Origin: Anaerolineales bacterium
GTDB lineage: Bacteria > Chloroflexota > Anaerolineae > Anaerolineales > UBA11579
Direction: 5' to 3'
DNA length: 64,000 nucleotides
NCBI GenBank assembly: GCA_020059485.1
Contig: JAGVCA010000016.1
Coordinates: 51,890-115,889, forward strand
The notes under the pieces were generated by a model. It searched no databases. It was given only the letters and a program-made list of their open reading frames with translations, and was not told the origin of the DNA. This document shows positions 16,372 through 41,038 of the stretch, in pieces (position 1 is the stretch's first letter; every line of letters begins with the position of its first letter). The position numbers and the translations under genes are program-made.

Positions 16372-17388
16372 ATGCCGATCTCATCAAACCACTTCTCTCG
16401 CAGGGATTTCCTTCGTCTGGCTGGCCTTTCGATCCTCGGACTCAGTCTGGAGAGCGTGCTTTCCGCTTGTGGCAGTCCAGCGGACACTCCACAGCCAACC
16501 GCCACTTCCCTGCCCCCGACCGCCACGCCCACGATTATCCCTCCCACACCTACCATAGCACCTTCTGCCACCTCCGCCCCCACAGAACTGCCAATCTCCC
16601 CGCGCGACCAGCGCCGTCTGGCACTGATCGAGCAATACGGCACGGCCACCAAAGCCTTGCCGCTCGAGTTTCACGGCGACCATTACTGGTTCTACGACGG
16701 CGCCTATTCGATGGACCCGCCCACCTTCGTCTGGATGATGGAATGGTTCCAGGCAAACGATGTCTGGGCTGTCAGCGGGCCGGAACTGCTCGGTTTTCTG
16801 GATGGCACGCTGCAGCTGCCCCAGCGGAGCGTGATCCTGACCACCGATTCCGGCGCCGCCTCGATGGATTCGATCCTCCGCATGATCCCTGTACTGGAAC
16901 GGACCGGGATGCACTTCATCAGCCTGATCTGGACGATGCAGATGCTGGCCGAAGAGACTGCGGCTTGCCCGGCCAACCTGTGCTGGGATACCTTCAATCA
17001 GGCCAACGAAACCGGACTGTTCTCCTTCGGCACGCACAGTGAATACCACCTCCCGCTGGCTGAAAAAGACCAGGACTTCGGCTTCCGCGACCTGTCGCAA
17101 TCGGTCGCCGAGATCCGCGCCAACATGGGGATCGAACCCGAGATCCTCTCCTGGCCGAACGAGTCGTGCCCGGTTTGGATGGATCAGCTCCCCGTCCTGG
17201 GGATCAAAGCCGCCTTTGGCGGCCGCTCCCGCCCTTTCGACCGCTGCGCAGTTTACCCGAACGATGACCTGCGTTACTGCCTGCCGCGCCTGTTCCCCCC
17301 CAACCGGCAGGACCGCCTTTCCGGCCGCCCGCCAGGGATGACCCTGGAAGAGATGGCAGCCATCTATATGGACGGCTTCGAGGAATGA
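16372..17388 (+). CDS. TAT-signal lipoprotein, polysaccharide deacetylase (CE4/NodB)-like
   Basis: Twin-arginine signal SRRDFLRLAG plus lipobox LSAC. Thr/Pro-rich linker. NodB-like motifs TTDSG and HSEYH. Confidence 0.55.
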   Translation: MPISSNHFSRRDFLRLAGLSILGLSLESVLSACGSPADTPQPTATSLPPTATPTIIPPTPTIAPSATSAPTELPISPRDQRRLALIEQYGTATKALPLEFHGDHYWFYDGAYSMDPPTFVWMMEWFQANDVWAVSGPELLGFLDGTLQLPQRSVILTTDSGAASMDSILRMIPVLERTGMHFISLIWTMQMLAEETAACPANLCWDTFNQANETGLFSFGTHSEYHLPLAEKDQDFGFRDLSQSVAEIRANMGIEPEILSWPNESCPVWMDQLPVLGIKAAFGGRSRPFDRCAVYPNDDLRYCLPRLFPPNRQDRLSGRPPGMTLEEMAAIYMDGFEE

Positions 17389-18224
17389 CCAACGTCCAGC
17401 CCAATTTCCTGATCATCGGCTCGCAAAAAGCCGGCACCACCTCGATCTACCACATCCTCCGCCAGCACCCCCAGATCTTCATGCCCGTGCGCAAGGAGAT
17501 CAATTTTTTCTTCCTGGATGCCGAGTATGAGCGCGGCTATCAGGCTTACCTAGCGCATTTTGCACCTGCCCCGCCCGAAGCAGCCGCAATCGGCGAAGCC
17601 TCTCCGGGATATATCTGCCACCCGTTGGCCCCCAGCCGCATCCACCAGCGGCTGCCGGAGGTTCGGCTGGTCCTGACCGTCCGCAATCCGATCGAGCGGG
17701 CTTACTCCCAATATTGGGACAACCGCCGCTCGCTCTCCGAATACCGCACTTTTGACCAGGTGATCGAAACAGCTCTGGAAGCCGATTATCACCCCGGCCG
17801 GTTGGGCTATTTCTCCCGCGGGACCTACATCCAGTACATCGAACGTTACCTCGAGTTCTTCCCCCGTCAAAACCTTCTCGTGCTGCCTTTCGACGACCTG
17901 CGCCAGGACGCGGCCGGCTTCTACCGTCGCCTGTTCGACTTCCTGGGTGTCGACCCGGAATTCACGGCCTCAGGGATGGACCGCAGCTACAATCCGGCCG
18001 CCGTGTGGAAAAACCCGTTTTTCCGCTGGTTCCTGCACCATCCAGGCGCAACCCGCTATCTCCCCGCCCGCCTGCGCCGCCTGACATTCTGGGGCCAGCA
18101 GACCCGCTGGCGCTATCCTGAGATGTCGCCGCAGGCTCGACAGAAATTGATGGACTTCTTCCGCCCGTGGAATGCCCGCCTGGCCGAGTTCCTCGGGCGC
18201 GACCTCTCTCACTGGGATCAATAA
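17385..18224 (+). CDS. Sulfotransferase family protein
   Basis: 5'-PSB motif GSQKAGTTS and 3'-PB motif RNPIERAYSQY. The ATGA overlap with the upstream gene indicates translational coupling. Confidence 0.85.
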   Translation: MTNVQPNFLIIGSQKAGTTSIYHILRQHPQIFMPVRKEINFFFLDAEYERGYQAYLAHFAPAPPEAAAIGEASPGYICHPLAPSRIHQRLPEVRLVLTVRNPIERAYSQYWDNRRSLSEYRTFDQVIETALEADYHPGRLGYFSRGTYIQYIERYLEFFPRQNLLVLPFDDLRQDAAGFYRRLFDFLGVDPEFTASGMDRSYNPAAVWKNPFFRWFLHHPGATRYLPARLRRLTFWGQQTRWRYPEMSPQARQKLMDFFRPWNARLAEFLGRDLSHWDQ

Positions 18225-29192: not shown

Positions 29193-29234
29193 CCTCGTTC
29201 CTCGTTACTCGTTACCCATTACTCGTTACTCGCC
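29193..29234. repeat. Six tandem heptamers (consensus ACTCGTT, minus strand AACGAGT)
   Basis: The sequence reads cctcgtt cctcgtt actcgtt acccatt actcgtt actcgcc. It lies between the uvrC stop and the next gene. Confidence 0.8.
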
Positions 29235-31096
29235 TACCCCAGATGACTCTGAACTGCGTGTGCCAGCGCTTCATTGATCCCCCTGACTGCGGTCAGTTCG
29301 TCCAGGCTCGCGCTGCGGATCCGGTCGAGCGAGCCAAAATGAGACATCAGGGCTTTGCGTTTGGCCGGGCCGATCCCCGGGATAGTATCCAGAATTGACG
29401 TGATCCCCTCGCGAGAGCGGCGGTTGCGGTGTGCGGTGATCGCGAACCGGTGAGCCTCATCCCGAATGCGCTGCAGCAGGTACAGCCCTTCTGATTTGCG
29501 CGGCAGCAGCAGCCCTTCTTCTCGACCGTGGAGGAACAACTCCTCGTGCTGTTTGGCCAGGCCGGCCACCGGGAATTGACCGATCAGCCCAAATTCTTCA
29601 AGCACAGCCACCGCTCGGCTGAGCTGCCCTTTGCCGCCATCCACCACCAGCAGGTCCGGCAGCCGCGAAAAGGAGGGATCCGGTTTCTTCCCCGGCACGT
29701 CGGCCTGCTCCTCGGCGCCCTGCCAGCGTTTGAAGCGGCGGCGCAGCATCTCTTCCATACTGGCAAAATCGTCCGGACCGGTCACATTGCGGATATTAAA
29801 GCGCCGGTAGTGCGCCTTGCTCGGGATGCCCTGCTCAAAGACCACCATGCTGCCGACGATCGCCATGCCCTGGGTATTGGAAATATCGTAGCACTCGATC
29901 CTGTTGGGCGGCTGGTCCATGCCGAGCGCTTGTTGCAGGTCGGCCAGCGAATCGCTCTGGCGGTGGCGGTCGGCCTGCCACTGCTCCTGCAGTGAGGTCA
30001 GCGTTTCGGCTGCATTCTCGGTTGCCATCCGGATCAGGTCGCGCTTCTTGCCCCGCTGCGGGATCTTGATCTCGACCTTCTGGTCCGAGCGTTGGGCCAG
30101 CCACTGTTTGATGATCCCGGCTTCCTCGATCTCGGCTGGCAGCAGCACTTCTTTGGGGACCGCCGCAGCCTGCTCGTAAAATTGCTTGATGAACTCGGCC
30201 AGCACTTCCTGGTCATTGGTCTCGGTGTCCGCCCCTTCCATCAGGAAGTACTCCCGCCCGATCATCTTGCCGCCCCGGATGAAGAAGATCTGGATGCAGG
30301 CCTCACGCTCGCTGCGGGCGATGGCAATCACATCCGAATCGATATACTCGGTATCGAAGACCCGCTGCCGCTTGACGATCTCCTCGATCGCCCGCAGCTG
30401 GTCGCGCTTGATGGCGGCCTGCTCGAACTGCATCTGCTCGGAGTGGGCTGCCATCTCGAGCTGCAGCCGGGCGGTGATCTCATCGGTGCGGCCATTGAGG
30501 AAGGCGCACAGGTCGTCGATCATCTGGCGGTATTCCTGCTGGTCCACCTTGCCAATACACGGCGCGTTGCACAACTTGATGTCGTAATACAGGCAGGCCC
30601 GGCTGTCCTGCCCGGTGATCTCGCGGTCGCAGGTCAGATACGGGAAGATCTTGCGCAGCACATCCAGGGTCTTGTGCACCGCCCACACGCTGTAATACGG
30701 CCCGAAGTAGCGCGAGCCGTCATTGTGCATCTGGCGGGTAACCGTCACCTTTGGGAACGGCTCAGCCCAATGCACCTTGATGTACGGGTAGCGCTTGTCA
30801 TCCTTCAGCCGGACGTTGTAGCGCGGCCGGTGCTGCTTGATCAGGTTCATCTCCAGGATCAGGGCTTCCAGTTCCGAGCCGGTGATGATCCACTCAATAT
30901 CGGCGATCCGTTTGACCAGTTCAACTGTTTTGTGGGAATGCTGGGCGCTGTGATGGAAGTACGACCGCACCCGGGCGCGCAGGTTAACTGCCTTGCCGAC
31001 ATAGATGACCATGCCGCTTTCGTCCTTCATGATATAGCAGCCGGGTTTATCAGGCAGGGTGTCGAGGATCAGGGCGAGATGATCTGAGGCGGACAT
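29234..31096 (-). CDS. uvrC: Excinuclease ABC subunit C
   Basis: 620 aa. GIY-YIG N-terminus (GCYIMKDESGMVIYVGKAVNLRARV), a UVR domain and a C-terminal HhH. Confidence 0.95.
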   Translation of the reverse strand: MSASDHLALILDTLPDKPGCYIMKDESGMVIYVGKAVNLRARVRSYFHHSAQHSHKTVELVKRIADIEWIITGSELEALILEMNLIKQHRPRYNVRLKDDKRYPYIKVHWAEPFPKVTVTRQMHNDGSRYFGPYYSVWAVHKTLDVLRKIFPYLTCDREITGQDSRACLYYDIKLCNAPCIGKVDQQEYRQMIDDLCAFLNGRTDEITARLQLEMAAHSEQMQFEQAAIKRDQLRAIEEIVKRQRVFDTEYIDSDVIAIARSEREACIQIFFIRGGKMIGREYFLMEGADTETNDQEVLAEFIKQFYEQAAAVPKEVLLPAEIEEAGIIKQWLAQRSDQKVEIKIPQRGKKRDLIRMATENAAETLTSLQEQWQADRHRQSDSLADLQQALGMDQPPNRIECYDISNTQGMAIVGSMVVFEQGIPSKAHYRRFNIRNVTGPDDFASMEEMLRRRFKRWQGAEEQADVPGKKPDPSFSRLPDLLVVDGGKGQLSRAVAVLEEFGLIGQFPVAGLAKQHEELFLHGREEGLLLPRKSEGLYLLQRIRDEAHRFAITAHRNRRSREGITSILDTIPGIGPAKRKALMSHFGSLDRIRSASLDELTAVRGINEALAHAVQSHLG

Positions 31097-31140
31097 AAGG
31101 GAATTTTAACATAAGGAGCAGTCAACGAGGTTGACAGAAA

Positions 31141-31168
31141 ATGCCCCGGAGTGATCCGGGGCATTTTC
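31141..31168 (-). terminator. Intrinsic terminator after secreted-protein paralogue 1
   Basis: The hairpin contains GCCCCGGAGTGATCCGGGGC (31143-31162), with a T-run on the minus strand. Confidence 0.7.
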
Positions 31169-31205
31169 AAAAATCCAGTTCAGGAAGAAAGTTGGTTAAC
31201 AGGTG

Positions 31206-31787
31206 CTAATAATAACAAAACCCATAGTACCAGCCCAGACCGTATCCATTAACACCCGGACACGAGCCGTTCGGCATGAAGATATAGGTCCAGGTGCCGG
31301 GATAATATCCGGTTAAGATTGCCGTATCGCCGAAATTTGGTGGCGAAGGCGTACAATAGTCGCCGTAATACTCCCAAGACTCAGGCATCGGGCTGCCGTA
31401 GCCGGCATCATCGTATACCGGGTTGCAGAGCGGAATTGAAGGACTGATCTCCTCGATCGCGGTGACATACGTATCGAAGGAGAATCCGTTCACCACTACC
31501 TGGACGAACTTCCCGGCCAGTTCCTGATGCCCGCGACACAGCAGCACATCCGGTTTGTTACCCTTCGGTTTACAGTCCAGATCGAAGGCCTGCCCACTCC
31601 AGAATGCTTTTCCGTTGAAGGATTTGAATTCCCCGTAAATGATGAAGGTAAAGACTGTTTGGTCACCCCCACGAGAAACCGCATTGACCAGGGCCAATCT
31701 CTTTGATTCTGCCCCAGCCGCGGTGGTGGAAATTAACATGATCATCAAAGCCAGTAAAACCGCTACGAAAACACTTCGTTTTTTCAT
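31206..31787 (-). CDS. Secreted Cys/aromatic-rich protein of unknown family, paralogue 1
   Basis: The start at 31787 (MKKRSVFVAV) has RBS GGGAGGAAG and is followed by a signal peptide. It shares the N-domain and four conserved Cys with the two neighbouring genes. The track ORF start at 31988 is rejected. Confidence 0.7.
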   Translation of the reverse strand: MKKRSVFVAVLLALMIMLISTTAAGAESKRLALVNAVSRGGDQTVFTFIIYGEFKSFNGKAFWSGQAFDLDCKPKGNKPDVLLCRGHQELAGKFVQVVVNGFSFDTYVTAIEEISPSIPLCNPVYDDAGYGSPMPESWEYYGDYCTPSPPNFGDTAILTGYYPGTWTYIFMPNGSCPGVNGYGLGWYYGFCYY

Positions 31788-32017
31788 TTTCTTCCTCCCA
31801 ACTCTATAAATGGAAATATAGGTGATCCGTGCGGGTTCAAAATCCTGCAGACGGTCCTTTCCAGCCCGATCACCTCGTCGTTCACCATACGCGGGAGCCG
31901 GATGGTTACCCCGCTGTACAGTGTGTTGGCGGCAGTACCGCGATGAAATCAGATCAATCTTACCCAAATTATACAGTACCCTGGTCATAGTGTCTATCTA
32001 CCTTGACCTGAAGATTT

Positions 32018-32043
32018 AAAAAAGCCCCGGAGTGATCCGGGGC
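32018..32043 (-). terminator. Intrinsic terminator after paralogue 2
   Basis: The same 20-nt hairpin GCCCCGGAGTGATCCGGGGC (32024-32043), with a T6 run on the minus strand. Confidence 0.75.
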
Positions 32044-32081
32044 TGACTGAACTATTCGTTTTTCAGCGGTGAGTGATCGGG

Positions 32082-32636
32082 CTAATTTATGTAATACCAC
32101 CCAACCCCATACATGTTATAGGGCGGATAGTTACCATTAGGAAGGAACTCGTACCAATATGAGCTTCCCTCAGAATAATAGTCCGCCAGGTACGCAGTTG
32201 CTCCATATGCCGGTTGTGTCGGGGTGCAGTAGTCGCCGTAATATACCCAGGGATAATCTGCTGACCCACCACCCCAATCATACACCGGATTGCAGTAGCC
32301 CTCGTTGAGCCCGACAAAAGTGATGAAGCTGAATCCGTTGACCACCACCTGGACGGTCTTGCCGCCCAGCGTAGCCGCCCCCCGGCACAGCAGCACATCC
32401 GGTTTCTCACCACGCGGCGCGCAGCGCAGGTCATAGGCCTGACCGTTATAGTAAGCCGTCCCGTCGAAGTGATTAAACTCGCCGAAGATCATAAAAGTGA
32501 AGACCGCGTCACCGCCTGCCTTCGAGACTGCGCTGATGAATGCAAGTTTCTGCGTTTCCGCGCTGACTGCCGGAACCAGCATGGTTGCCAGGATCGCAAC
32601 CACCAGGATTGCCAATACAACAGATCTTGTCTTCAT
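32082..32636 (-). CDS. Secreted Cys/aromatic-rich protein of unknown family, paralogue 2
   Basis: 184 aa. Signal peptide ending VSA/ETQ. RBS GAGGAGG. Confidence 0.75.
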   Translation of the reverse strand: MKTRSVVLAILVVAILATMLVPAVSAETQKLAFISAVSKAGGDAVFTFMIFGEFNHFDGTAYYNGQAYDLRCAPRGEKPDVLLCRGAATLGGKTVQVVVNGFSFITFVGLNEGYCNPVYDWGGGSADYPWVYYGDYCTPTQPAYGATAYLADYYSEGSSYWYEFLPNGNYPPYNMYGVGWYYIN

Positions 32637-32724
32637 GAAAAACCTCCTCAGGTAGTTTGTAGGATGGTGACCAGGTACCGGGCAACCTGGTGCGCAGATA
32701 CCTTGTCGTTAATTTTTCCTTCTT

Positions 32725-33303
32725 TCAATTCGCTAAATCTGAGTGCCAATACCAACCTGAGCCAAATTGGTTAATGCCAGGAAGCATGCCATCCAGGAGA
32801 AACATATATGGCCTGACGATTGGACCCAAATAATAACCGGCAAGCCAGGCCATGTCACCATACTCTGGTTGGGTGGGTGTGCAGTAATCTCCGTGATCAA
32901 ACCACACATTCGGACTTAAAAAGTTGATATCATAAACCGGATAGCAGTAGCTCAGGCTTGGGGGACTCTCTGTGATCTCTACATAAGTGACGAAGCTGAA
33001 GCCGCTCACCACTACCTGGACGGTCTTCCCACCCAGCGCAGCCGCCCCCCGGCACAGCAGCACATCCGGTTTCTCACCGCGCGGCGCACAGCGCAGGTCA
33101 TACGCCTGGCCGTTATGGTAGGCGGTCCCGTCAAAGTTGTTTAACTCGCCGTAGATCAAAAAGGTGAAGACCGTCTCACCGCTTGCCTTCGAGACTGCGC
33201 TCATCAATGCAAGTTTCTGCGTTTCAGCGCTGACCGCGGGTACCGCCAGGGTCGCCAGCAACGCTACAACGAAAAACGCCAACACGACATTTTTCAATTT
33301 CAC
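32725..33303 (-). CDS. Secreted Cys/aromatic-rich protein of unknown family, paralogue 3
   Basis: 192 aa. GTG start with RBS AAGGAG. Signal peptide ending VSA/ETQ. Confidence 0.75.
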   Translation of the reverse strand: MKLKNVVLAFFVVALLATLAVPAVSAETQKLALMSAVSKASGETVFTFLIYGELNNFDGTAYHNGQAYDLRCAPRGEKPDVLLCRGAAALGGKTVQVVVSGFSFVTYVEITESPPSLSYCYPVYDINFLSPNVWFDHGDYCTPTQPEYGDMAWLAGYYLGPIVRPYMFLLDGMLPGINQFGSGWYWHSDLAN

Positions 33304-33715
33304 GTCTTTTCTCCTTAAACCAATCGGCCTGATAGATGTAGAAAACTTTTACTTATTCTGTACAGTGCAAGATCGCAGTCAATTTGCACCTCCTCCGGCA
33401 AGGCGGTCTCGAACACCGCCGTCCATGCCCAACTCCGTTACTTATAGCCCCGTTCCGATTAAGAATTTGGAAACTATACCTGAGACCAGCATAGCACAAT
33501 CTGAGCTTGAAGACTAGTACCAAAGTCCTATCAACCTTGATGGTTCGCTCACTAGCTTGAGAACTTGGCAGGGATTACCCCGGTCTTCCTGGCAGAGGAT
33601 AGGATCTTCATGAATCAAATAAGTCACCAGAAGCATCGGGATAACCAATCCTGCAACCCGGAGCGAGGATATCCGTATATACTGATAAAGTAGCAATTCC
33701 AAGGAGAATAGATCT

Positions 33716-34513
33716 ATGGAAACAAAAAGCAATAAACGAGATATCGGTTGGGGCGTGCTCATGATCACCTTCGGGGTGGCAGCACTGTTCAATATCTTTG
33801 GCAGCCTGACCGAATGGGCCATGGTTGGTCTGCTGGCACTCGGCGGCCTGGTCTGCCTGGTGATCTTCCTGACCGATCGCAAAGACTGGGTGCTGCTAAT
33901 CCCGGCGTACATCCTGCTGGCGATTGCCCTGATTGCCACACTGGCGATCACCAACCTGCTGCAGGGCGATATCCTGGCCTCAGGCGTTCTGGCGATCGTT
34001 GGGACCCCCTTCCTGGTCGTGTATCTTTTCAACCGGGCAGAAAATTGGTGGGCGCTGATCCCGGCTTGGGTACTGTTCTCGGTCGGTATCATGATCCTCG
34101 GGATTGGGCTGGGCATCTTGCAAGGCGGCATCCTCCCTCTGTACGTGCTGGCCGCCATCGGCTTGCCCTTCCTGGTGGTGTACTTCACCAACCGGGCCGA
34201 GAACTGGTGGGCGCTGATCCCGGCCTGGGTGATGATCTCGATTGGTTTCATGATCGCCCTGATCGATCTGCGCATCCTGAATGATCTGGCGATCCCGGCC
34301 TACGTGATGTTCGCCATCGCCCTGCCCTTCCTGGTGGTCTACTTCACCAACCGCAAGGGAAACCGCTGGGCACTGATCCCGGCCGGCGTCACCGGCGCGA
34401 TCGGGATCGGCTTCTTTGCCGGCACAAACCTGGCCCAATATGTTATCCCCCTGGTCCTGATTGGGGTCGGCGCACTGGTGCTGTTCGGCTCGTTCGCCCG
34501 CCGCGGCGCGTAA
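33716..34513 (+). CDS. Integral membrane protein built from four internal ~55-aa two-helix repeats
   Basis: The motif PFLVVYFTNR(A/K)(E/G)N(W/R)WALIPA recurs three times, with a degenerate first copy (LVIFLTDRKDWVLLIPA). Confidence 0.7.
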   Translation: METKSNKRDIGWGVLMITFGVAALFNIFGSLTEWAMVGLLALGGLVCLVIFLTDRKDWVLLIPAYILLAIALIATLAITNLLQGDILASGVLAIVGTPFLVVYLFNRAENWWALIPAWVLFSVGIMILGIGLGILQGGILPLYVLAAIGLPFLVVYFTNRAENWWALIPAWVMISIGFMIALIDLRILNDLAIPAYVMFAIALPFLVVYFTNRKGNRWALIPAGVTGAIGIGFFAGTNLAQYVIPLVLIGVGALVLFGSFARRGA

Positions 34514-36677: not shown

Positions 36678-36689
36678 GGAGTGATTGTG

Positions 36690-37697
36690 ATGACCTTCAG
36701 AAAATTACTCATCCTGACCATACTGGCAACACTGCTGGCGGCATGCAGCCCGGCTGATCACATCAATCCGCCAGGCGATTTGGCCCTGCCCGAGAACGGC
36801 GCGGTTTCCCTGGCATCTGGCGAAAAACTCACTGTCGTCGCCACCACCAGTTTCATCGGCGATGTCGCCGCCCAGGTTGCCGGGGACGCCATCAACCTGA
36901 CCACCCTGATCGGCGTTGGCCAAGATCCTCACGGCTTTGAACCCACCCCGCAGGACCTGGCCGCCATCGAGCGCGCCGATCTGATCCTGGTCAACGGCCT
37001 CGGCCTGGAAGAGGTTCTGCTGGAGGCGATTGGTGAGACCGCCGCCGCGCCGGTCGTCCCGGTTTCCGCCGGGATCGAACCCCTCGGGCATAACGATGAA
37101 CATGAAGAAAAAGAAGAAGACCACGAAGAAGGCGAGGACCACGGACACACAGCTGGCGATCCCCACTTTTGGGTAGACCCGAACAATGTCATCATCTGGG
37201 TAGAAAATATCCGCCAGGCTCTCTCGGTGGCTGACCCCAACAATGCCGAGCTGTACGCGGCCAATGCTGCCGCTTACCGCCAGCAGTTGGAAGAACTGGA
37301 TGCCTACATCCGGCAGCAGGTCGAAACCATCCCGCCCGCCAACCGCGAACTGATCACCGACCATGGCACCTTTTCCTATTTCGCGGAGGAGTATGGCTTC
37401 GAGATGATCGGCACGGTCATCCCGGGCTTTACCACCACTGCCGGCCCTTCCGCTGGTGATCTGGCTGACCTGCTGGCTTTGATCGCAGAGCACCAGGTCC
37501 CAGCCATTTTCGTCGGCGAGACCGCCCCGGAGAGCACCCGCAAACTGGCGGCTACCCTGGCCGTGGAATCCGGCACCGAGATCCAGGTCCTGACCTTGCT
37601 GACCGGGTCACTCGCCCCCGCAGGCCAGCCCGGCGACACCTACCTGGGCTACATGCGGTACAATATCGAGAAGATTGCCGCCGGGCTGTCTGAATAA
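36690..37697 (+). CDS. znuA: Metal ABC transporter substrate-binding lipoprotein, ZnuA-like
   Basis: Lipobox LLAAC. TroA-fold pattern. The His/acidic loop HNDEHEEKEEDHEEGEDHGH is typical of zinc-specific ZnuA. Confidence 0.85.
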   Translation: MTFRKLLILTILATLLAACSPADHINPPGDLALPENGAVSLASGEKLTVVATTSFIGDVAAQVAGDAINLTTLIGVGQDPHGFEPTPQDLAAIERADLILVNGLGLEEVLLEAIGETAAAPVVPVSAGIEPLGHNDEHEEKEEDHEEGEDHGHTAGDPHFWVDPNNVIIWVENIRQALSVADPNNAELYAANAAAYRQQLEELDAYIRQQVETIPPANRELITDHGTFSYFAEEYGFEMIGTVIPGFTTTAGPSAGDLADLLALIAEHQVPAIFVGETAPESTRKLAATLAVESGTEIQVLTLLTGSLAPAGQPGDTYLGYMRYNIEKIAAGLSE

Positions 37698-37756
37698 TCT
37701 CCCTAACTTCAACCACGCGGCAACAGGCGTAAATCCGTTGCCATTTATGAGGCCAG

Positions 37757-38554
37757 ATGGTCACCAGGATCTTTGATTACGGTAAACCGTGTACGACGCC
37801 CCCCATCGAGGATACCCCTGCCCTGCAAGTGGAGGGACTGACTTTCCGTTACCCGGATCTGGACCTGCCGGTACTGGACCAGATCAACCTGACGATCCAC
37901 CCTGGGGAACGGGTGGCGATGGTTGGACCGAACGGGGCCGGTAAGTCCACGCTGATCAAACTGGTCGCCGGGCTGGAGAAGATCCAGTCAGGCCGCATCC
38001 AGGTCTACGGCCACCCGGCCCACGAGTGCAAACACCGCGTAGCGCTTGTTCCGCAGCGCTCGGAGGTGGACTGGCGCTTCCCGGTCACTGCCCGTGAGGT
38101 AGTGATGATGGGACGCTACGCCAACCTCGGTTGGGTAAAACGCCCCCGTCCGATCGATCACCAGAAAGTCGCTGAAGCCCTCGAACGGCTCCAGATCACC
38201 CGCCTGGCCGACCGCCGTGTCGGGGACCTCTCCGGCGGGCAGCAGCAGCGCGTCATGCTGGCGCGCGCTCTGGCTCATGATGCCGATCTGCTGCTGCTGG
38301 ACGAACCACTCAACCATGTCGATTTTTCCACCCAGGAACTGATCTTCCACCTGCTGGAAGACCTGTGCAACCTAGGCAAAGCCGCCATCGTCAGTACCCA
38401 TGACCTGGGGATCCTCCCGGTGCACTTTTGCCGGGCGGTCTTTCTCGACCGCCATATTATCGCGGACGGCGAAGTCAGCGATGTGCTGACCGCAGAAAAC
38501 ATCGCCCGGGCTTATGGTTTTGAGTTCCACGGGGAGGAGAACACCAGCAAGTGA
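37757..38554 (+). CDS. znuC: Metal ABC transporter ATP-binding protein
   Basis: Walker A GPNGAGKST, signature LSGGQQQR and Walker B LLLLDEP. Confidence 0.9.
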   Translation: MVTRIFDYGKPCTTPPIEDTPALQVEGLTFRYPDLDLPVLDQINLTIHPGERVAMVGPNGAGKSTLIKLVAGLEKIQSGRIQVYGHPAHECKHRVALVPQRSEVDWRFPVTAREVVMMGRYANLGWVKRPRPIDHQKVAEALERLQITRLADRRVGDLSGGQQQRVMLARALAHDADLLLLDEPLNHVDFSTQELIFHLLEDLCNLGKAAIVSTHDLGILPVHFCRAVFLDRHIIADGEVSDVLTAENIARAYGFEFHGEENTSK

Positions 38555-38583: not shown

Positions 38584-39765
38584 TCAAGACACGCTCGGCG
38601 CAGCCGCCCACGTTAGGTCTTGATCGCTCCGTCCGAGCGAGCTGAATGCACTTGCCAACACATTCCGGGCAGCATTCACATCCCGGTCCAATACCAGTCC
38701 ACATTCAGGACAATCATGAACACGCACAGACAAACGCTTTTCGACCCTCTCTCCACACCGGCTGCACCGCTGGCTGGTGCGGGCCGGGTTCACCACAACC
38801 AGTCGGCAACCAGTCTCTTCCACTTTGTATGCCAACATTTGGGTGAACATCCCCAGGCCCGCATCGTGCGAGGACAGCGCGAGATGCCGGTTCGTGTTGA
38901 GGAACTTGAGGTTGAGGTCTTCGATCGCAATCAGGGCATGCCTTTCAGCCAGTTCCCGGGTGAGCTTGTGCCAGTAGTCATGACGTTGGTTGGCGATCTG
39001 CTCATGCAGACGGGCCACCTGCCGGACCGCTTTGCGCCGGCGATTGCTGCCCTGCTTCCGTCTGGACACCCGGCGCTGGGCCACCCGCAGCCTGGACAGC
39101 GAGCCTCTCAGCCAGCGGGGGTTGTCAATCAGCTCGCCTTCGCTGGTCGCCAGCAGGGAGCGCAGGCCCATGTCAATCCCAATCGGGCCGATCTCGATCG
39201 GACTGCCTTTTTGCTGTGGCTTTTGCTCCTGATCGGGCAGTTCCAGCATCAGGCAGAGATACCATTTGTCGTTGACCCGTTTGACGACCACATGCTTGAT
39301 GACCGCTCGCTCCGGGATCGGGCGGTGGAAGATCAGCTTGATCTCGCCGACATGCTGCAGGTAGAAGCGTTTCTGTCCGTTGTCCTTCTCCCGCAGCTTG
39401 CAGCCGTCACCGTAGCGGTACTCGACGCTCTTGAAGCGGTGATCGCCTTTGTAGCGCGGGAAGCCGGGAGTTTCTCCAGCTTTGACCCGGCGGAAGAAGG
39501 CCGCGAAGGCTTTGTCCAGCCGGCGCAGCAGCTGCTGCACGCTGCTGGCATTCAGCAGGCCGTATTCCTCCGGGCATTTGTTGCGCTGATCGCGGAAGTG
39601 CACCCATTGGGCAGGATAGCGGATCCCTTCACCGCTCTCCTGGTAGGCGGTGATGCGCTGTTCCAGGGCGGCGTTGTACAGCCGGCGCGCCTGGCAGAAC
39701 AGGCTGTCGAGGGCAGCGGTTTGCGCTCTGTTGGGACGCAGGCGGTACTTGTAGGTCCGGATCAT
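38584..39765 (-). CDS. tnpB: TnpB (OrfB_IS605) RNA-guided-endonuclease-family protein
   Basis: 393 aa. N-terminus MIRTYKYRLRPN. RuvC motifs GIDMG, IAIEDL and DRDVNAARN. Zinc ribbon CSRCG...CPECG. Confidence 0.92.
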   Translation of the reverse strand: MIRTYKYRLRPNRAQTAALDSLFCQARRLYNAALEQRITAYQESGEGIRYPAQWVHFRDQRNKCPEEYGLLNASSVQQLLRRLDKAFAAFFRRVKAGETPGFPRYKGDHRFKSVEYRYGDGCKLREKDNGQKRFYLQHVGEIKLIFHRPIPERAVIKHVVVKRVNDKWYLCLMLELPDQEQKPQQKGSPIEIGPIGIDMGLRSLLATSEGELIDNPRWLRGSLSRLRVAQRRVSRRKQGSNRRRKAVRQVARLHEQIANQRHDYWHKLTRELAERHALIAIEDLNLKFLNTNRHLALSSHDAGLGMFTQMLAYKVEETGCRLVVVNPARTSQRCSRCGERVEKRLSVRVHDCPECGLVLDRDVNAARNVLASAFSSLGRSDQDLTWAAAPSVS

Positions 39766-40113
39766 TCAGCTGCGGTTCTCTTGTGTTTCGATGGATTTCC
39801 TGACCGTTTCTTCGGAGACGTGCCGACGCTGCCCACATCACCCAATCTGCTCCACAGTACAGCTATCCTGGTTTGCCATCTGCTGTGGCGCTGTGGTTGG
39901 ATCGCCAGCCTCAAACTGGCGACTGTGATCAGATCCGCTCTCCAAGACCTCAATGTCCATCTTGGGTTGGCTTGCTTTGTTCTGAAGCAGTTCTTTCAGA
40001 CGCACAGCCGCACTCCCCACAAGAACTTTCCGCCTGTACTTTGGGCACCAGACCAGATGATATTTGAGAGAAAACACACTGCCTGCGTTGGTTTTGGATT
40101 GAGTGCCAGACAT
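39766..40113 (-). pseudogene. tnpA: Decayed IS200-type Y1 transposase (tnpA)
   Basis: The N-terminus YHLVWCPKYRRKVL is intact. The expected HUH region reads SDHSRQ. There is an in-frame TGA at 39838-39840. The middle part is missing or frameshifted (LWSR in another frame). The C-terminal HVSEETVRKSIETQENRS is back in frame 1. Confidence 0.8.
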
Positions 40114-40216
40114 AGAACAATTGTACTACAAATGTGTCGAAACGACAATTGCGACAAAACAATCAGGGAGTGCCGTTTGCCACTGCCAATTTCCTCGGCT
40201 CCCTTTGGAGTATTTT

Positions 40217-41038
40217 ATGATTGAATGGTTGACCGAACCCCTGACCTACGGCTTCATCGTGCGCGGGCTGGCGGCCGCCATCCTGACCGGCATCGCCTGC
40301 GCCGTGTTGAGCGCTTTCGTGGTCTGGCGCGGGATGGCCTTTGTTGGCGATGCCATCGCCCACGCCATACTGCCCGGGATCGTACTGGCCTTCATCGCCG
40401 GCGTGAGCCTGTTTGCCGGCGCGCTGGTCACGGCGGTGCTGGTAGCGGCCTTGATCGGCTGGCTCTCACGCCACGGGGATATTCGCGAGGACACTGCCAT
40501 CGGCGTGGTCTTTACCGGATTCTTTGCCCTGGGTATCCTGCTGATGAGCATTGTGACCAGCTACCAGGATCTGACCCACATCCTGTTCGGCGATATCCTG
40601 GGGGTCAGCCGCTCCGACCTGGGCATCATGGTGGCGATCATGGCCATTGTGCTGGTGGCGGTCTTTCTGTTCTATAAGGAGCTGGTCGTGACCTCCTTTG
40701 ATCCGGGTCATTCGGTGGCGATCGGACTATCGCCTGAACTGGTGCGCTATGGCCTGCTGCTGCTGATCGCCCTGACCGTAGTGGCCGCTATCCAGGTCGT
40801 TGGTGTCGTTCTGGTGTTGGCGTTGTTGATCACTCCGGCGGCGGCAGCCTCCCAGTTGGCCAAACGACTGCCAGCCATCATGGGGCTTGGTGTGGTCTTC
40901 TCTGTGCTCTCCGCCCTGGTTGGATTCTATGCTTCGTATTATGCCAATGTTGCTTCCGGCCCGGCGGTCGTGCTGACCCTGACGGTGATCTTCCTCCTGA
41001 CGCTGCTGGCCCGCACCATCCGCCACCGGCTGGCCTGA
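40217..41038 (+). CDS. znuB: Metal ABC transporter permease
   Basis: Start at 40217 with RBS GGAG. About 8 TM helices with the ZnuB/TroC pattern (FMxxALxxG..., LVLALLITPAAAA). The track ORF start at 40103 lies inside the IS end. Confidence 0.88.
   Translation: MIEWLTEPLTYGFIVRGLAAAILTGIACAVLSAFVVWRGMAFVGDAIAHAILPGIVLAFIAGVSLFAGALVTAVLVAALIGWLSRHGDIREDTAIGVVFTGFFALGILLMSIVTSYQDLTHILFGDILGVSRSDLGIMVAIMAIVLVAVFLFYKELVVTSFDPGHSVAIGLSPELVRYGLLLLIALTVVAAIQVVGVVLVLALLITPAAAASQLAKRLPAIMGLGVVFSVLSALVGFYASYYANVASGPAVVLTLTVIFLLTLLARTIRHRLA

Follow-up and report, generated by a model that had tools for sequence, protein, structure and literature searches.

Three tandem paralogues of an unnamed exported protein family upstream of uvrC in an Anaerolineales genome, with gene conversion confined to one domain

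When neighbouring genes encode proteins that are alike in one half and seem to vary in the other, is the varying half being diversified, or does some other history lie behind the contrast? The question is raised by a three-gene array upstream of uvrC in an Anaerolineales bacterium, within a stretch of 64,000 nucleotides (assembly GCA_020059485.1, contig JAGVCA010000016.1, positions 51,890 to 115,889 of the forward strand) that we refer to throughout as the window. An initial annotation had described three adjacent minus-strand genes for secreted proteins with a conserved scaffold and a variable tip, and took this to suggest a diversifying surface, adhesion or binding function. We consider it very probable that the genes belong to a small exported family and that their present form reflects tandem duplication followed by gene conversion. 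The fuller account that we favour, three functional paralogues of an orphan exported family acting as non-enzymatic extracellular or cell-surface binders, is held tentatively, at slightly less than an even chance, and the binding role itself we regard as doubtful. The array is laid out as follows:

31206-31787, minus strand: copy 1, a 193-aa precursor, the most divergent of the three paralogues
32082-32636, minus strand: copy 2, a 184-aa precursor
32559-32636, minus strand: putative signal peptide of copy 2
32313-32558, minus strand: N-domain of copy 2 (residues 27-108)
32085-32312, minus strand: C-domain of copy 2 (residues 109-184)
32725-33303, minus strand: copy 3, a 192-aa precursor, with a GTG start and an AAGGAG Shine-Dalgarno sequence
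33226-33303, minus strand: putative signal peptide of copy 3 (codons 1-26)

Open reading frames are present at all three places where the annotation had put them, and inspection of the sequence finds a strong Shine-Dalgarno sequence before each, with GGGAGGA just 5' of the copy 1 ATG at 31787; a longer in-frame reading of copy 1 from 31988 receives no support from homologues. Each precursor consists of a 26-residue signal-peptide-like segment, an N-domain of about 82 aa and a C-domain of about 75 aa rich in Tyr, Trp, Gly and Pro, and the mature proteins come to 17.5-18.5 kDa (for copy 3, 166 aa, 18.4 kDa and a computed isoelectric point, pI, of 4.6). Public collections already contain the exact copy 3 protein (P0002), labelled by JGI a 'hypothetical protein'. 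Aligned end to end, the copies are 49-64% identical with few gaps, and the C-terminal region, which had been described as largely unalignable, aligns at 41-50% identity with the common motifs CxPVYD, GDYCTP, P..[YF]G, [AT]..L..YY, Y.F...G and N.[YF]G.GWY. Frameshift decay of this region, which the annotation had named as a possible explanation of its divergence, is excluded together with a pseudogene, because the reading frame is kept to the C-terminus, some 50 distant homologues have the same motifs, and the ratio of nonsynonymous to synonymous substitution rates (dN/dS) points the same way. Since frames are intact, Shine-Dalgarno sequences strong, terminators present, and dN/dS is 0.11-0.43 in every comparison with measurable dS (dS is saturated in most comparisons), we regard the genes as real and under selection.

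The contrast between the two domains has a specific origin. The annotation had noted a 39-nt identical run in copies 2 and 3 (32373-32411 and 33040-33078); the run is exact, and it sits within a 300-nt direct repeat of 85% identity:

32301-32600, minus strand: conversion tract on the copy 2 side, starting at the end of the signal peptide, crossing the N-domain and reaching the CNPVYD motif
32968-33267, minus strand: conversion tract on the copy 3 side, the 85%-identical partner of 32301-32600

Third-codon-position identity between these copies is 0.6-0.92 over codons ~18-121 and 0.27-0.47 outside them, with sharp edges. By the Nei-Gojobori method dS reaches 1.46 in the signal peptide and 2.4, which is saturated, in the C-domain, but no more than 0.31 in the N-domain. 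The likeness of the two N-domains is thus a sharply bounded gene conversion of about 300 nt and not a matter of differing selective constraint, and the contrast that had been read as a sign of diversification is its result. Computed for copies 2 and 3 separately by domain, as the annotation had proposed, dN/dS comes to 0.26 (N-domain) and 0.23 (C-domain), below 1 as it is wherever it can be measured; both domains are under purifying selection.

Might the proteins nonetheless be surface adhesins or recognition proteins whose C-terminal tip is under positive or balancing selection, for instance in the recognition of phages or neighbours? Within the clade of the window the C-domain does change about three times faster at the amino-acid level (copy 2 against the relative encoded by locus L001: dN 0.50, as compared to 0.15 in the N-domain), constraint is looser there, and indels fall mostly within it (its 76 residues are spread over 144 alignment columns). 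In the C-domain copies 1-3, L001 and the relative P0005 stand at nearly equal distances from one another, at 41-50% identity, and in the N-domain they form a hierarchy, at 47-83%, which is compatible with old C-domain lineages maintained on recombining N-domains, and the family gene is only ~35-47% identical where the neighbouring UvrC is 84-88% identical. To this extent the variable tip of the annotation stands. Its conserved scaffold does not stand apart when the whole family is considered, because there the domains hardly differ in conservation (the top residue has a mean frequency of 0.46 in the N-domain and 0.43 in the C-domain; 16 and 13 columns at >=70% conservation), and the motifs that are easiest to recognise (YCYxVYDW, CQDxPAxYGD and GxGYYY) are those of the C-domain. 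With the contrast of copies 2 and 3 explained by gene conversion, and with no dN/dS value above 0.43, we consider a selected tip improbable, if still worth keeping in mind; dS is mostly saturated, so that positive selection cannot be shown, and some of it may have acted at individual C-domain sites.

To what family do the proteins belong? The annotation did not recognise one, and neither do the curated libraries that we searched: copies 1-3 match no Pfam family at E<=10 and have no accepted match in NCBIfam, PADLOC, PHROGs or the PDB sequences. PHROGs and PADLOC offered for the three proteins nothing beyond one PHROGs match at E=0.26, and profiles of 3 and 50 sequences found in the PDB sequences AcrIIC5 alone, at E=0.12, which is noise. 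When 50 members were compared with Pfam no Ig-like (immunoglobulin-like) model matched at E=10, apart from a single TIG match at E=0.15 in one member. The family became visible when a profile was searched exhaustively against 1.84 billion cluster representatives, which gave 51 matches at the cut-off of E<=1e-3; searches by word index recovered just 4-10 members, the one covering 5.8 billion proteins returning the three window proteins and one relative (P0003, on the 985-nt Logan contig L001), and scans of genomes and metagenomes with the window-clade alignment found no relatives. Fifty of the 51 matches are 95-220 aa long, nearly all 180-210, and have the identical layout of signal peptide and two domains. 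The remaining one, P0050, was rejected as a member: it is a 1587-aa surface protein that matches through its Ig-like repeats alone, and these sit beside Big_2 domains and overlap sub-threshold matches to Big_11 and CBM_X2.

The four conserved cysteines of the annotation hold across the homologues. In copy 2 numbering C72, C84 and C137 are invariant in all 50, as is one Gly, and C115, one Asp and one Trp are at least 90% conserved. The family consensus on the N-domain side is VFxFxVxG..F..G....G..Y.L.C.......C....G..V.V...GF.F.T.V, and it continues as ......YCY.VYDW......W...G..CQ...A..GD.I...NP......Y.F...G........G.GYYY..C. through the C-domain. After the signal peptide members have 4 or 6 cysteines, except for two with 7, and copy 1, with 6, has its extra pair in 'SCPG' and the C-terminal 'FCYY', as found in most family members. 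These counts would fit a single disulfide in each domain, to which a C-terminal pair may be added, the putative bonds being C72-C84 in the N-domain and C115-C137, with the optional pair, in the C-domain.

Named members are hypothetical proteins from metagenome-assembled genomes (MAGs) of Anaerolineae or Anaerolineaceae (RJP49596.1, MBK9005692.1), and the window UvrC is itself closest, at 63-68%, to those of Anaerolineales/Chloroflexota MAGs. We therefore describe a small, rare and unnamed family, seen so far only in Anaerolineae (Chloroflexota), which is undescribed in the curated libraries searched and whose C-domain is without recognisable relatives. A shorter relative with a signal peptide and just the N-domain (~90 aa), which the family hidden Markov model (HMM) matches at E 4.7e-14, is encoded at L053 3102-3530 on the minus strand, divergent from uvrC in a more distant Anaerolineae MAG, and suggests that the N-domain can exist as a stand-alone module.

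How did the array arise? Its conserved downstream neighbour provides the frame of reference:

29234-31096, minus strand: uvrC, which is context and not part of the family

In two close relatives from metagenomes one family gene is followed by a hairpin terminator and this by uvrC: L087 (family protein P0005, UvrC 88% identical to that of the window) and L089 (P0009, UvrC 84% identical). The ancestral state is thus one gene directly upstream of uvrC. Tandem duplication of this gene along with its terminator produced the three copies, and the conversion of about 300 nt later homogenised the N-domain region of copies 2 and 3. Tandem pairs of family genes recur at L088, L090, L092, L096/97, L111 and L120. 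Among 80 more distant Anaerolineales genomes (UvrC <=68%) no family member is present, except for the N-domain-only relative in L053, and the cinA-uvrC gaps of 28 related MAG loci contain no secreted look-alikes. Of these 80 loci (L002-L081), 37 retain cinA and uvrC as a divergent pair, and because the spacer between them varies in length from 113 nt to 8.9 kb, it is a hotspot of changing gene content. The window's spacer (31096-34461) holds a membrane protein gene in addition to the array. G+C over the array and its spacers (31100-33700) is 0.45-0.54, as compared to 0.59-0.64 in the flanking uvrC and cinA genes, which may reflect a composition rich in Tyr, Asn and Phe together with intergenic DNA rather than a foreign origin.

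Traces of uvrC were noted at two related loci. In L001, positions 3-62, upstream of the family gene, encode 20 aa that are 80% identical to the N-terminus of UvrC, and in L088 two tandem copies have a weak UvrC-like fragment between them (1122-1274; 39% over 51 aa); these pieces may be footprints of duplications that took in the 5' end of uvrC. The intergenic spacers of the window contain no convincing uvrC remnants.

The idea of a cassette duplication, already put forward in the annotation, is borne out by the terminators, which occupy the following places together with two promoter-like elements:

31137-31168, minus strand: terminator after copy 1, a 14-bp perfect stem with the same 20-nt core as that after copy 2, 40 nt upstream of the uvrC start
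32023-32044, minus strand: terminator after copy 2, a 9-bp G+C-rich stem with a 4-nt loop and a T6 tail (terminator scan)
31968-31996, minus strand: promoter-like TAGACA-17-TATAAT, 11/12 matches, just downstream of the copy 2 terminator (consensus scan)
31103-31113, minus strand: TATGTTAAAAT element (in L087 at 663-673; in L089 at 1220-1230)

Within the window there are exactly two occurrences of the 20-nt hairpin GCCCCGGAGTGATCCGGGGC, at the annotated positions 31143-31162 and 32024-32043, where 0.01 would be expected by chance, and this shows that the terminator was carried along with the gene. The hairpin folds at -25.6 kcal/mol after copy 1 and at -18.3 kcal/mol after copy 2, with T-runs following the stems, and its core also follows the family gene in L001 and L087; L089 has a different hairpin of the same type. 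As the gap between copies 2 and 3 is just 88 nt and without a terminator, these two are probably co-transcribed, and the predicted intrinsic terminator at 32023-32044 would close their transcription unit. The site at 31968-31996 is a candidate for a separate promoter of copy 1 with a leader of ~175 nt; it is only a pattern match, and the region has no more sites of this kind than shuffling leads one to expect. An Rfam scan of 30500-34500 found nothing. We also note that TATGTTAAAAT is conserved 6-10 nt upstream of the uvrC start in three genomes, directly after the family-gene terminator, where it resembles a -10 box that would give uvrC an mRNA with no leader or a very short one.

What, then, might these proteins do? 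The products look secreted, as the annotation had it. By inspection each copy begins with MK(T/K/L)(R/K), followed by 17-18 hydrophobic residues and (V/A)(S/G)A before E27, an n-h-c arrangement ending in AxA that conforms to what is expected of export by Sec and signal peptidase I, and the Ala at position -1 is at least 90% conserved in the 50 homologues. In none of the copies is there a lipobox (no Cys lies in or beside the signal peptide), a sortase signal, a C-terminal transmembrane helix or a hydrophobic tail (the C-termini are ...GWYYIN, ...GWYYGFCYY and ...GWYWHSDLAN), nor is there a catalytic motif. Because lipobox, membrane anchor, sortase signal and catalytic motif are all absent, non-enzymatic binding at the surface or outside the cell appears to us the most likely function. 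An AlphaFold2 model of copy 2 built with the 50-sequence alignment (predicted local distance difference test, pLDDT, 89.7; predicted template modelling score, pTM, 0.61) places a helix at 3-19 and is all-β past this signal helix, with seven strands between 30 and 107 and another five to six between 109 and 182; the N-domain is predicted to be an Ig-like β-sandwich, with a second β-domain after it. Foldseek returned no structural match at E<=0.001, and the matches above it are all generic Ig-like domains (probability up to 1.0, E>=0.009, template modelling (TM) scores 0.3-0.5), among them nanobodies, filamin, titin, flavivirus E domain III and CopC. An internal duplication relating the N- and C-domains was considered and rejected, as hhalign shows no homology between them. 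The C-domain is marked by its composition (Y 11.8%, W 4.7%, P 9.9%, K+R 2.4%) and by a pI of 4.05, against 6.8-8.7 for the N-domain.

Under the account that we favour, the precursors would be exported by Sec and cleaved after AxA, and the mature, disulfide-stabilised protein would be soluble or non-covalently associated with the surface. The Ig-like N-domain might serve as a stalk or spacer, and the acidic, aromatic C-domain would contact the ligand, possibly a glycan of the cell envelope or matrix, an envelope polymer, or a partner surface (lipo)protein.

Alternatively, the proteins might be subunits of a fibre or sheath, similar to TasA, camelysin or pilins, with the tandem paralogues as major and minor subunits. 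Anaerolineae are a filamentous lineage, tandem paralogues are common in the family, and small exported all-β proteins whose genes have strong Shine-Dalgarno sequences and terminators are typical of abundant structural proteins. Even the top PDB match of Foldseek is a Sulfolobus pilus subunit, but it is not significant (E 0.018, TM 0.29-0.38), is driven by the signal-peptide helix and is gone when the mature protein alone is modelled. No HMM of the TasA, camelysin or pilin families matches, no dedicated signal peptidase, sortase or usher was present among the neighbouring genes checked, and in the model the mature protein opens directly with strand 1 of the sandwich, without a donor-strand extension, all of which leaves this explanation a small chance.

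Secreted antagonists, akin to large bacteriocins or toxins and diversified by duplication, would likewise be small, secreted, disulfide-rich, lineage-restricted, fast-evolving and encoded in tandem arrays, and copy 2 weakly matches the lactococcin 972 family (E 0.16). This match (TIGR01653), however, covers residues 1-42, the signal peptide only, and scores 12.3 bits against a cut-off of 32.1. Furthermore, the genes lie among housekeeping genes and not in mobile islands, neither an immunity-like small membrane gene nor a dedicated ABC exporter accompanies the family in the contexts examined, and Foldseek, Pfam, the PDB sequences and the defence and phage libraries revealed no toxin fold or motif. 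We give this possibility only a slim chance.

A cell-surface connection is suggested by one part of the family. Members of the P0033/P0055 subclade have, immediately 5' of the family gene and in the same orientation, a gene for a 535-551-aa lipoprotein with a sulfatase-type formylglycine-generating enzyme (FGE-sulfatase) fold domain and a Cys-rich C-terminal half of ~230 aa. The pairing holds in at least 9 of the 13 loci with enough upstream sequence, with lipoprotein identities of 42-99% and two downstream contexts, an amidase or an aminotransferase:

L082 8232-9887: partner lipoprotein
L093 5102-6709: partner lipoprotein
L100-L102, L110, L111, L113-L116: further partner lipoprotein loci

Aligned to the Streptomyces FGE (2q17/6muj) the lipoprotein lacks both catalytic cysteines, and it also bears a weak resemblance to PorK/GldK lipoproteins, whose chains it matches at E~8e-8; we therefore take it to be a non-catalytic surface scaffold. 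The pairing would count in favour of a role at the cell surface.

The same neighbours might instead point to the family as a substrate of sulfur-ester modification, by Tyr O-sulfation or formylglycine formation. The C-domain is Tyr-rich, a sulfotransferase flanks the family genes divergently in L090 and L092, a sulfatase is nearby in L093, the FGE-domain lipoprotein lies directly upstream across a subclade, the window has a sulfotransferase gene at 17385-18224, and CTP(T/S) and CAPRG of the window copies faintly recall the sulfatase motif CxPxR. The motif itself is absent, though (the copies have CAPRG or CKPKG, and CTPTQ or CTPSP), and these positions are not conserved family-wide, where the consensus is LxC.. 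and YCQDxPA; the FGE-fold lipoprotein is without its catalytic cysteines; L090 and L092 share long-range synteny and so represent one event; and the window sulfotransferase is 13 kb off. We consider modification of this kind very improbable indeed. This sulfotransferase, a divergent protein of 279 aa, follows a polysaccharide deacetylase-like gene (together 16372-18224, plus strand); it was missed by a tblastn search of the window for sulfotransferase, FGE, PolX, Lgt and aminotransferase homologues, which found none of them.

Several points weigh against our favoured account of the array. The FGE-fold lipoprotein has no homologue in the window by tblastn, so that the link to it may not extend to copies 1-3, and gene neighbourhoods are otherwise not conserved across the family. 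The pTM of just 0.61 makes the relative orientation of the two domains uncertain. The C-domain has no significant structural neighbour, and ligand binding is for this reason argued from composition and from the missing catalytic features. Export, disulfides, binding and expression are likewise deduced from sequence, the signal peptide having been judged by inspection alone.

More speculatively, and with a chance that we put barely above that of secreted antagonists, the family might form an extracellular recognition module of monoderm filamentous Anaerolineae, its C-domain a new fold and the whole a polymorphic self/non-self or phage-decoy system. Here the C-domain would dock through the dead FGE-fold lipoprotein of the P0033/P0055 subclade or on a sulfated envelope glycan, and old divergent C-domain lineages would be kept on N-domains repeatedly homogenised by recombination.

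Anaerolineae are abundant in sludge, sediments and subsurface habitats, and their cell surface is little known. As a lineage-specific exported family with a confident model, a C-domain without relatives and, in one subclade, a lipoprotein partner, the proteins described here are reasonable candidates for the study of Chloroflexota envelopes, filaments or matrix binding. The array opens no long-standing question by itself and nothing indicates a new mechanism.

Some further features of the surroundings deserve mention. DNA-repair or recombination genes (uvrC, polX, recJ) directly adjoin family genes in 3 of ~7 independent contexts, a fourth has sbcC at a distance of two genes, and in other places cinA, dprA and smr are not far away. 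The pattern was noticed post hoc, has no obvious rationale for a secreted protein and may simply reflect a core-genome location. The divergent neighbour of copy 3 encodes a polytopic membrane protein whose three internal repeats of ~55 aa read PFLVVY(L/F)(F/T)NRAENWWALIPAWV...; it has no match in Pfam, PADLOC or PHROGs and does not stand beside the family gene in relatives. Farther off, a gene of the IS605 family is inserted between znuA-type ABC transporter genes. The positions are:

29234-31096 (window), L090 9573-11294, L092 7106-8839, L096 5090-6871, L098 8611-11178: repair-gene neighbours
33716-34513, plus strand: 265-aa polytopic membrane protein, divergent from copy 3
38584-39765, minus strand: IS605-family OrfB/TnpB gene (Cas12f-like TNB domain)
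36681-38554 and 40103-41038: the znuA-type ABC transporter genes on either side of it

How does the family compare with known systems? The resemblance to the FGE-fold lipoproteins of the PorK/GldK type concerns the partner gene of the P0033/P0055 subclade, which is like them in missing the catalytic Cys pair and differs from them in a unique Cys-rich C-terminal half; no such gene is in the window, and Anaerolineae are not known to have a type IX secretion system. The N-domain is, like the bacterial Ig-like and E-set domains (Big_2, Big_3, Big_11 and the filamin/TIG type), a predicted seven-stranded β-sandwich, but it differs from them in that its members reach neither a Pfam Ig-like model nor a significant structural match at the thresholds given above, and its intradomain disulfide and the signature VFxFxVxG...VNGFSF are specific to this family. 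The C-domain recalls carbohydrate-binding modules (CBMs) in being small (~75 aa), all-β, acidic, Tyr/Trp-rich and disulfide-braced, with a conserved Asp and Trp and the GxGYYY motif, and an acidic Tyr/Trp-rich composition is typical of glycan-binding modules; in contrast to CBMs, no CBM model or solved CBM matches the members by sequence or fold, and no glycoside hydrolase is fused or consistently adjacent to the family gene. The closest parallel in evolution is with tandem surface families under concerted evolution, since here too the genes stand in tandem, the duplicated unit includes its terminator and one domain has been homogenised. Arrays with programmed variation differ in having silent-cassette or invertible-promoter machinery and driving repeats, of which this array has none, and the conversion looks like the ordinary sporadic kind. 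The array is in this respect a textbook case of how gene conversion limited to one domain can mimic a conserved scaffold with a variable tip, and the family, new as it is to the libraries searched, is of a familiar kind: a lineage-restricted, tandemly duplicated, exported protein with a predicted Ig-like domain, under concerted evolution.

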